Assembly (NCBI GenBank): GCA_037379345.1
Contig: CM074511.1
Coordinates: 3,720,001 to 3,784,000, forward strand
Length of the DNA: 64,000 nt
Reading direction: 5' to 3'
Source: Perna viridis
Taxonomy: Eukaryota
Shown here: in pieces, positions 27,701 through 63,265 of the stretch
How positions within the stretch are numbered: position 1 is the first letter of the stretch
Layout of the letters: each line of letters begins with the position of its first letter
Translations under genes and position numbers: made by a program
The notes under the pieces: generated by a model
What the model saw: only the letters and a program-made list of their open reading frames with translations
Database searches by the model: none
What the model was told of the DNA's origin: nothing

Positions 27701-30700
27701 CATCAATACTGACAACAGTTATCTTATTATAGATATATGATTAATATGTTGTATTTGAAGCCAAAGGAAGGATATATTTATTACGTGGAAGGAATTACAG
27801 GTAGAACAGTTGTTAATCTATGTCTGATTATTTTTTGAAGTTTTTTTTAAAAGTTTAGTCTGAAAGCCTACAAAGATTCCATTCATGTGCTGCCTGATTG
27901 TAGATTTATTTGTGTCTGGATTTTAGAATTAAGAAACTTGTTTATTTTAGGCATCTAAAGTCATTCATGAAAGCTTTTTTCTTTTTATTGAAGATAAATG
28001 TAGTAATGTTGTTCTTGATTATTGTTCATAAAAATGCTCAAATATTGAAAATGTGGTCAAATCACTGAAAGCCAGTGAAAATGTGGTCAAATCAGTGAAA
28101 GCCAGTGAAAGGTATATTATAAGGTAGCTGTTTCAAAAGAAACTGATTAAAAAAAATATGATAGTAGAAATATTGTTTATGTTTGTACTAAGTGTACTGA
28201 GAGGTCAGTGGGAGGCTGTTGGAAAGTAAGAAACTTTACAGACTTATAAATGTGCAAATGTGCCACACATGAGAATCATATGGTTTGCATCATATGAGTA
28301 TCATATAAATCGAGCACCATATGATAATCAAGTGTTTTTAAGCCAAAATTACCATATGAGAATCATATGATAATCATATGACTATCATATGTCCAATATC
28401 ATATGATTACCATATGATTATCATATGAATCGAGCACCATATGATTATCATGTGTGGCACATTTGCCTGTGTTCCTATAGGAACGTTTTTAGTGCAGTAA
28501 ATGTAAGGATTTGTTTGTGTGGGCTTGTGAACTGGAGAAGTATCAGACAGATAAATATTACATATAATTGAGTTTAATATTGCAATTATGAGTATGCACC
28601 CAAAATTTACAGAACATACACCAACCATGCCAGAAGAGAATGACCTTAAACAACTACTGTATGTAATTTATATTTTTGTGCATATTTGATCAAATACTAC
28701 ACCCATTTCATTTAGGGATATTTGTTTTAAAAGAAGGAGAAATCTAGCAGTTACAGGCTTCCTTGTAAATCTAGATTTGTACAGATCAAGTTAAATTTCA
28801 TTGTTATTTATCTCCTACTACTTAAGTGACTTCACTTAAGTGACTTCATTTACTTTTGTTACATTGTATGTATTATTTTGGTTATTTTATGTTCTTTGTT
28901 ATGTTTGTCTGTTTCCATGTCTGGTCTTTGTCCTTGAATTTCATTCTTTCGATTTCCGCTAGAATCTTGGTTCCCTTGATTACTCTTCCAGATGAAAAAT
29001 CTGGTAGTTTTCTTGATAGCTTATTATACAACCGCAAACAATTTTTTTGGGGTCATATAATGGTATCACTCTATCGTCATTGTCATCTATTAACTTTAGT
29101 TTATTGCCCCGTGCAGGTCCGGGGGTCAAAAGAATAGGCCTGCAGCAGCGCTAAGCTTGTTGTAAAAGGCGACTAAATAGTGCTCAGAACCCTAGCCGGG
29201 GGCTAGGGCGCTCTGCCCACAGAGCAACTGGATTGTGTGCCCCAGGTGGTGGAATGGGGTACCCCTGGTGTGTTACATGCTGGGGTTGTCAGGCTATAAT
29301 ACGGAAAACCTGACCACAAACCATAGTGGTGCACCATGTTGGGAAGATGCCATGTTCCTCGCACGTTAAAGAACCCTACTGTGGTATTCTCCCGGAGTAG
29401 GAACCATAAGGCTCCGCCACAGGAGGCTAAATTGCCCGACCCTACCCTCCTCTCCCTATTTCCTGTGACAATCAAAATTTGTCGACCCCATTATCCTTGT
29501 GCCCCATCCCTTTTTTCATTTCATCATCATTTCATGTTCATTTTATCATCCATTTCATGTTCATCGTCTGAATATAGCTGAAATATTGCTGCTCAGACGT
29601 TAAACCCCAACAAACAAACAAAAAAACTTCAGTTTATTTACTTGAGTAAAGAACTTAGATCTTTTTGAAATTTTAACATATTGTTCCTAAGGACTTACCG
29701 GAAGGCCCTATAATTTTTTGAGGTTTTTGCCCTATCGGAAATAAAGGCCTAAAAAGAGGAAAATAGGTGTTATCATTAGAATTGATAGAAAAAGCTTATT
29801 GTTGATCTGATTTTTATGATTCAGATGTCTATCTGTGCCTTTTGAAATTTTGCTTTGAATTTTTTTTTACAGGGTCGGCTTATCCCTATCTGTTTTAGAG
29901 TTAGAGGGTACAAAATTAGGCCACGCCTAAAAAAACAACTTTTTAATTGGTCCATTTTCCATTTTTCATTTTTATTGGATTTCTTAAGAAAATCCCTACC
30001 TGCAGTATTCAATCAGATTTCAGATATCTCTTACAGTTTCTTGGTTATATGGGGGTCAAAGAGGCCACACCCAAAAAAATACTTTTTTTTGGTCCAATTT
30101 TGAAAATGTTTATTTTCTCTTTAATTGGATTCCTTATGAAAATCCATGCAAGCATTTTTAATCAGATATCAGATATCTCTTAAAGGGGCCACATCCCAAA
30201 AAAAATGACTTTTTTTATTTTAGATCTGATTTTTAAAAATATTTAATTAAATTTTTAAAAATTTGTGCTATATTGTGTCCAAACTAGTTGTTGTGTCCAT
30301 AATGAACTATAAAGCCGTATGCTTGTGTATCAAAAACTAGTACTGTGTCCACACTTGCTGCAAATGTTCAGGGTTAACCACTGCAGTCGTCTCTTGATGT
30401 GCTCTCCAAAGCTTTTTATATTATCATTGATTAGAGAGATAATAATGGTTTCATTTTTCAATAATAACATAACAAATGAGGTCTCTAAGTGTATTTTAAT
30501 CATAACATACCAAGTCTGCCAATCTGAAGAAATCATGGAAACCTTCATCAGGGTTCAAGGTTGCAAGGTCAACAATTACTTGACCCAAGGATTCATTACT
30601 GCTAAAGGTATTCTTGTCTATCACATGAAATATTATGTACCTGTTAATGTAGAAAACAATTGGCACCTCAGTTTGGATTTAATTAACCAAACAGACAGTT

Positions 30701-62949: not shown

Positions 62950-63265
62950 TCGATTGATTAATTGATGATTGGGGTTTAATGCCCAAGCAGCAATATTTCA
63001 GCTATATTCAGGCAAAGAACAGGAAATGGATAATAAAATGAACATGAAATGATGATGATGAAATAAAAAATGGGATGAGACACAAGGATAATAGAATCGA
63101 CAAATTTAGATTGCCACAAGAAAAAGGGAGGGATGGGTAGGGTCGGGCAATTTAGCCTCCTGTGGCGGAGCCCTATGATTCCTACTCCAATCGAATACCA
63201 CAGCAGGGTTCTTTAACGTGCGAAGAACGTGGGATCTTTCCCAAAACGGTGCACCACTATAGTAT
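62950..63265 (-). mobile_element. Second copy (3' portion) of the 29106 retroposon
   Basis: Reverse-complement match from ATAGTGGTGCACC through GAATATAGCTGAAATATTGCTGC..TTAAACCCCAA. Confidence 0.88.

Follow-up and report, generated by a model that had tools for sequence, protein, structure and literature searches.

A putative exoribonuclease-resistant RNA heading an LP-type SINE and shared with LINEs and viruses

A full-length SINE in the window, the 64,000-nucleotide stretch of Perna viridis DNA analysed in this work, begins with a module of about 80 nucleotides that is predicted to fold into two tandem pseudoknots (P1/P2 and P3/P4) around an invariant hairpin (P5). The same module recurs in numerous other repeat families, heads a complete LINE and follows the last stop codon in RNA-virus-like contigs. 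From comparative sequence analysis, we give an even chance to the proposal that this head is a conserved, putative exoribonuclease-resistant RNA (xrRNA). According to this proposal, SINE copies would be transcribed passively within host RNAs, from which 5'-to-3' decay would strip the flank upstream until it is halted at the P1 base. The stall would leave a stable unit-length RNA, the tail of which would be copied by a LINE reverse transcriptase. The exonuclease block would in this way provide the SINE with a defined start in the absence of a promoter of the tRNA type, and decay halted likewise on viral RNAs would yield a short non-coding 3' fragment. More tentatively, the module may form a structurally new class of RNA, exoribonuclease-resistant or 5'-end-forming, that moves between animal LINEs and SINEs and unrelated RNA and DNA viruses, is interchangeable with the HDV-like ribozymes at the 5' ends of LINEs and is maybe descended from one.

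An RNA of this class would let SINEs spread without a Pol III promoter. The role of the conserved LINE-derived head, a question raised by Matetovici et al. 2016 (PMC4758252), receives a testable answer from the proposal. If the module blocks Xrn1, hosts would hold thousands of nuclease-resistant RNA starts in their own transcripts, xrRNAs would reach beyond viruses, and RNA engineering would gain an 80-nt stabilising tag. A module that cleaves would be a new ribozyme class. We know of no exoribonuclease-resistant or 5'-end-forming RNA of this sort from cellular genomes.

Boundaries, copies and transcripts of the SINE

The element and its parts are located in the window as follows.

29106..29624, + strand: full-length LP-type SINE copy of about 520 bp (genome search, target-site duplication)
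29092..29105, + strand: left target-site duplication (TSD), 14 nt (repeat-pair search)
29625..29638, + strand: right TSD (repeat-pair search)
29247..29257, + strand: A-box-like 11-mer outside the head, without a B-box (pattern search)
29361..29372, + strand: 12-nt word shared with Snail-domain SINE alignments
29559..29624, + strand: 3' tail, a hairpin (29559-71 / 29593-605) followed by (CAAA)n

The initial annotation, the coordinates and letters of which proved correct, had set the 5' end of the element at G29106 by means of a 14-bp TSD. This end is confirmed by the other copies: 56 of 60 copies retrieved via internal core words start at positions 1-3, with unrelated bases upstream, and of the 23 copies with a clear TSD, 18 have its end directly before position 1. 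Near-full-length copies carry (CAAA)n tails, and the TSD is clear in 23 of 32 of them, doubtful in 3 and absent in 6. The duplication of the window copy (29092-29105 / 29625-29638) does have the length of 14 nt, with one mismatch. No tRNA gene was found in the window and no B-box in the SINE at up to one mismatch; the earlier statement that both Pol III boxes are missing holds for the B-box, and a single A-box-like 11-mer occurs at 29247. Other copies do not extend 5' into a tRNA-derived head, and together with the conservation across families described below this upholds the view that a structured RNA takes the place of a tRNA at the head.

In the 723-Mb genome (G000) the 19-nt core of the head has 8,393 exact matches, against none for a control pattern. 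Searching for the head yielded 1207 candidates, of which 40 were scored, and all 30 loci examined run into the same body of about 520 bp at 81-100% identity. A 5'-truncated copy of this SINE (L281) is present on the minus strand of the window at about 62960-63260. Between 3.33 and 3.55 Mb of G000:C1, about 34 SINE cores are found in 210 kb, compared with a genome mean of about 1 per 86 kb, and at L340, L341, L342 and L346 SINE copies lie inside or adjoining LINE copies and one another, often several per 9.5 kb. G000 has 800 exact matches to the tail in which a non-SINE 6-mer precedes it; of 30 viewed, about 20 lack an upstream SINE body and resemble solo tails of about 45 nt. The tail is likely recognised by an I/Nimb-type LINE, and the word at 29361..29372 gives a weak hint of a Nin/Snail-type SINE body.

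Transcripts were followed in RNA-seq run X21, of which 19% was read, from a library that may or may not be stranded and with both strands taken together; fragment libraries show unit-length RNAs poorly. Reads of the SINE family cover it evenly at about 900-1000x on both strands, with no discrete 5' start or start pile-up in the 19% read. At 29104-08, at least 464 of 1940 reads continue into unrelated upstream flank, which indicates that most SINE RNA is uncut read-through. This run argues against efficient cleavage and lends a unit-length species no support. Just upstream of the SINE, positions 28900-28990 are part of another repeat and reach an RNA depth of 2000-4300x.

Predicted fold of the head module

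The helices of the model have the following positions.

29106..29184, + strand: shared structured head module, two tandem pseudoknots (predicted), about 80 nt (comparative alignment)
29108..29123, + strand: P1 hairpin, 29108-11 with 29120-23; its loop is the unpaired U29112 plus the 5' strand of P2 (own- versus foreign-partner pairing)
29113..29143, + strand: P2 pseudoknot helix, 29113-19 with 29137-43; a conserved AGAATA linker (29131-36) precedes the 3' strand
29144..29157, + strand: P3 stem, 29144-46 with 29155-57 (covarying pairs)
29147..29184, + strand: P4, second pseudoknot helix, 29147-53 (P3 loop) with 29178-84
29158..29176, + strand: near-invariant core, consisting of U, the P5 stem (29159-62 with 29170-73), a 7-nt purine-rich loop and UAA
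29190..29208, + strand: P6 hairpin, private to this SINE family

In the predicted layout the first hairpin is a plain stem of 3-5 bp with a loop of 8-9 nt, P3 abuts P2, and the P3 loop would pair as P4 past the P5 hairpin and the UAA. The alignment was made of 17-18 intact representatives, one per family or virus, picked by eye and thereby favouring clean examples; the invariance of the core is partly built in, as the core word served as search pattern. Paired cells amounted to 90.9%, against 74.1% in shuffles (0/500), in a sequence-only alignment. Double changes were found at all seven pairs of P2, at 3/4 in P3 and 1/4 in P1, and at none in the invariant P5. Strands were also compared with their own and with foreign partners, a test in which two P2 offsets were hand-set and relatedness among rows was partly controlled. 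Own partners were preferred in P2 (6.44 versus 4.30 pairs; 0/20000 permutations), in P3 (3.72 versus 2.24; 0/20000), in P4 (score 11.6 versus 9.1; 0/20000) and, with 3.78 versus 3.41 of 4 pairs, in P1 (7/20000). The preference persists with 12 less related rows. Within the six viruses alone it holds for P2 (28/20000) but not for P4 length (1816/20000), and P4 is weak in two of the six viral examples. The compensatory changes in P2, P3 and P4, which the initial annotation had named as a check, point to selection on RNA pairing.

Seven held-out sequences scored 41-64 bits with the model, compared with less than 29 for chance matches. Their own partners are preferred in P3 (84/5040) and P4 (21/5040), and by a fixed rule the exact layout of P1, U and 7/7 P2 pairs is present in three of the seven. 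The folding energy of single sequences is not above chance (z -0.86 and -0.35); the initial argument that almost all of the first 105 nt can pair is therefore no evidence by itself (z -0.86), in contrast to the comparative data. The stretch between the P2 strands measures 12-13 nt in all six viral representatives, a constancy that fits a ring of fixed size around the 5' end. Repeats have 13-17 nt or more, and families L217 and L316 far more throughout, which is awkward for a tight ring and counts against an xrRNA.

Several helices of the initial annotation needed revision. Of its five CCCCG/CGGGG pairs, four remain as P1 and the fifth is private to this copy, position 29124 being T in 60/60 genomic copies and 780/822 RNA reads. 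The loop pseudoknot is retained as a 7-bp helix with cross-family support, without the eighth pair through T29112: this base is T in 18/18 representatives while the opposite base varies, as would be the case for an unpaired loop base. The pairing AGCGCTA/TAGTGCT is supported across families as P4, and a stem that had been overlooked, AGC (29144-46) with GCT (29155-57), makes it the second pseudoknot. The CTT/AGG helix is abandoned, with full pairing in only 4/18 representatives, and the GTTG/CGAC helix has to be amended, GTTG being GTCG in the SINE family (915/955 reads). The hairpin at 29190-29208 does exist, as P6 of this SINE family and not as part of the shared module. Of 131 copies, 63 were unscored; among the other 68, P6 takes an 8-bp form in 38 and a 7-bp form in 27. 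Its arms probably change jointly as one event, and one of its 7-nt arm words follows the core in 1/139 non-host instances.

Carriers of the module in viruses, metagenomes and LINEs

In IMG/VR, the full module was found in seven contigs, six of them RNA-virus-like and one from a large DNA virus. The RNA-virus contigs, five of which are distinct, encode an S-domain coat and an unassigned 1217-aa ORF (L094), a tetravirus-type capsid (the near-identical L100 and L113), RdRP_3 with a noda-type capsid (L110), RdRP_3 (L115) and a toti-like RdRP_4 (L123). All six carry the module in coding-strand orientation, about 6, 11, 11, 24, 74 and 101 nt behind their final stop codon, with 89-183 nt left to the end of the contig; L094 has a tandem second copy, which is cut off. 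This position behind the stop codon, sometimes in tandem, supports an xrRNA. Location in viral 3'-UTRs (PMC10520033; PMC12397905) and tandem copies are typical of known xrRNAs, and Xrn1 halts at the P1 base in those of plant viruses (PMC12397905). The SINE start, 1-2 nt before P1, combined with the post-stop position in viruses, matches the xrRNAs described. The initial annotation had offered cleavage, exonuclease blocking and recruitment of reverse transcriptase or ribosomes without choosing; the viral 3'-UTR copies would favour exonuclease blocking. Against it stand the location of the most conserved part, 50 nt from the 5' end, the DNA-virus copy, which this reading does not explain, and the report that a pseudoknot alone is insufficient for exoribonuclease resistance (PMC12397905). 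Each of the five distinct RNA viruses could have captured the head of a host repeat.

The DNA virus, which has MSV199 and Bro-N genes, is represented by a 212-kb contig; its copy of the module (L122:6979-7057) is flanked by two genes on the same strand and followed after about 150 nt by a 1046-aa ORF.

An unlikely alternative is a module that serves as binding site for the ribosome or a translation factor, comparable to a 3' cap-independent translation enhancer, by which viruses and LINEs would be translated and SINEs would ride to the ribosomes making LINE protein. The 3'-UTR location in tombus-like and toti-like contigs, the spacing before the ORF in L122 and a P5 that is invariant and not covarying, as sequence-specific binding predicts, speak for such a role. 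It leaves element 5' ends 1-2 nt before P1 unaccounted for, many successful carriers are non-coding, and the core resembles the 3' end of 18S rRNA no more than chance would give (36/300 shuffles).

We consider it very improbable that the head acts as DNA, as the internal Pol II promoter proposed for it in PMC4758252, with viral copies being passengers from host RNA. The fixed 5' end, the first base of which is G in 44 of the 56 copies starting at positions 1-3, could be a copied cap, and sense reads exceed antisense reads by about 2:1 if the library is stranded. In opposition to this are the compensatory changes in P2, P3 and P4, the missing start pile-up in run X21 and the fact that compact RNA viruses retain the module at the same place and in the same orientation. 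As RNA viruses cannot use a DNA promoter, a role as DNA only is excluded, and the module probably acts as RNA; promoter activity could be a second role in LINEs.

A scan of metagenomes gave at least 122 stretches, reading as animal repeat families, and at least 226 module instances fell into 43 clusters; the module occurs in many repeat families besides the window SINE. No convincing ORF was found downstream of the core at the metagenome loci. One metagenome contig (L157:1371-1519) carries two heads in direct tandem with differing P2 sequences. Of 16 matches in genome_contigs, seven contain the module; these carriers resemble host DNA or chimeric ends of contigs, and a bacterial function was rejected. 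At the ends of bacterial MAG contigs, L314:96-290 and L321:145-236 (minus strand) are SINE-like units of about 200 bp that combine this head with one hairpin and a LINE-like tail, L314 with an apparent 9-nt TSD (by eye). Among 31 viral matches to the core 15-mer, 26 have no module (18 of these were model-scored, at 16.9-19.4 bits), and L324, L348, L350 and L351 score below 27 bits or have no model score.

A complete LINE (L326:507-6640, G001:C4) bears the module at its 5' end, which model R1 matches at 64 bits, followed by a CCHC ORF1 and an APE-RT-RNase H ORF2. On the strength of this match the SINE head is LINE-derived. This eukaryote-type LINE sits in a bivalve gill-symbiont assembly, probably as host contamination. 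Of the earlier claim that the head was taken from the partner LINE, the LINE origin stands and the partner as donor is not supported: no LINE with the SINE head was found in G000, where the matches examined (25/25, 100 of 173 and 3/3) were SINE copies, a search that divergent heads could escape. No LINE ORF was seen upstream at any of the 30 tail loci viewed out of 800, and the matches listed in protein searches of G000 for a partner LINE all belong to one LINE family. The abundant Nimb-type LINE of G000 carries another head; Nimb is named among the partners of bivalve SINEs (PMC11481361). The SINE body is not above chance in its likeness to LINE 5' UTRs (102/300 and 266/300 shuffles), and the tail is marginally like two LINE tails (2/300 shuffles each).

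L339 (701-6776; G000:C8:23537700-23543775) represents a young, intact Nimb/I-type LINE family with frames of 491 and 1247 aa, which gave 150 and 143 scored matches in G000, most compared copies being 96-99% alike. Its ORF1 is about 43% identical to that of L326, and the 5'-UTR bodies of both LINEs align (score 145, versus a shuffle maximum of 61 in 300 shuffles), from the last strand of the module onwards; the heads differ. The first 150 nt or so of L339 allow an HDV-like parse starting at the first base of the element, with P1 of 7 bp, P2 of 8 bp, P3 of 3 bp, CUAA before P2' and a non-standard P1.1. This parse comes from one family only and has no Rfam match; no second family with such a head was found in G000, and 11/11 viral matches were chance matches. 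The common body behind different heads, one of them HDV-like, suggests that this slot can hold a 5'-end-forming RNA, a point in favour of the xrRNA proposal.

That the module occupies the slot of an HDV-like fold also speaks for a new class of self-cleaving ribozyme, cutting just 5' of P1 and releasing the element from the co-transcript that carries it, as do its invariant unpaired bases and the use of 5' ribozymes by several LINE clades (PMC6765202; PMC5786205). The core shares two words of 8 and 7 nt with the L339 head, in the same order and in an equivalent helix (6/5000 shuffles, post hoc), and both may have a common descent. We nevertheless consider this reading rather unlikely. A linear RNA virus cut within its 3' UTR would lose its replication end, and 10.1101/2024.05.16.594327 places viral ribozymes in 5' UTRs or tandem pairs. 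The 5' junction has no conserved base and is crossed uncut by the reads described above, and HDV and hammerhead cores are absent.

Relation to described elements and RNA classes

Contrary to what the initial annotation had implied, the head is not new as a sequence: Matetovici et al. 2016 (PMC4758252) described mollusc LP-SINEs with a head of about 70 bp common to Nimb, I and RTE LINEs, for which they proposed a promoter, citing the L1Tc promoter/ribozyme as a parallel and calling for experiments. The window SINE shares its layout and core word with the scallop heads of their Suppl. Fig. S2 (by eye), and likewise has a LINE-derived head replacing a tRNA, variable TSDs and a short-repeat tail. 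By head and layout it is thus LP-type, a sequence-based assignment to the type and not to the family Sgl_LP or Oed_LP. The SINE with a LINE head is therefore known as well. The parts of PMC4758252 consulted contain neither an RNA structure nor viral copies, and no description of the RNA fold or of viral copies was found in titles and abstracts, a coverage that leaves aside most subscription journals, Repbase notes, figures and bioRxiv supplements; the core word was met in one unrelated paper in the literature searched. What is apparently undescribed is a structured RNA, shared with viruses, that heads a known type of SINE.

The HDV-like ribozymes at the 5' ends of LINEs (R2, RTE, L1Tc; PMC6765202) have the same position and a double-pseudoknot architecture, but the pseudoknots of the module are tandem and not nested. 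The HDV parse (nested P1-P2-P3/L3-P1.1 with CNRA before P2') gave no solution in the window copy, one poor solution each in L035 and L326, and a clean one only in L339. The hammerhead core has the consensus CUGANGA plus GAAA, neither of which occurs in the first 200 nt; the initial annotation had likewise seen no HDV or hammerhead core in this head. Rfam returned only chance matches for the module, with no family match and none for twister, twister-sister, pistol or hatchet at E<=10 (window) or E<=5 (11 other loci).

These comparisons place the module outside the known xrRNA and ribozyme classes considered. Compared with the class 1/2 xrRNAs of flaviviruses, it consists of two tandem H-type knots without a three-way junction. 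With the coremin xrRNA (PMC10520033) it shares a short near-invariant core, a 4-bp hairpin and the location in 3' UTRs of viruses that are not related to one another, dsRNA viruses among them, but coremin is described there as two hairpins with a spacer, and its sequence was not found in the module at up to 4 mismatches. In the class 3 xrRNAs of Tombusviridae/Solemoviridae, as described in PMC12397905, the loop of a hairpin likewise pairs with a strand further downstream that is preceded by a conserved purine linker, in the 3' UTR of viruses and with an RNA boundary at the base of P1. Unlike these, the module has no J1/2 bulge, second stem or T-loop (L2B) in its first hairpin and no Rfam match, and it adds a second pseudoknot with an invariant hairpin and occurs in retroposons.
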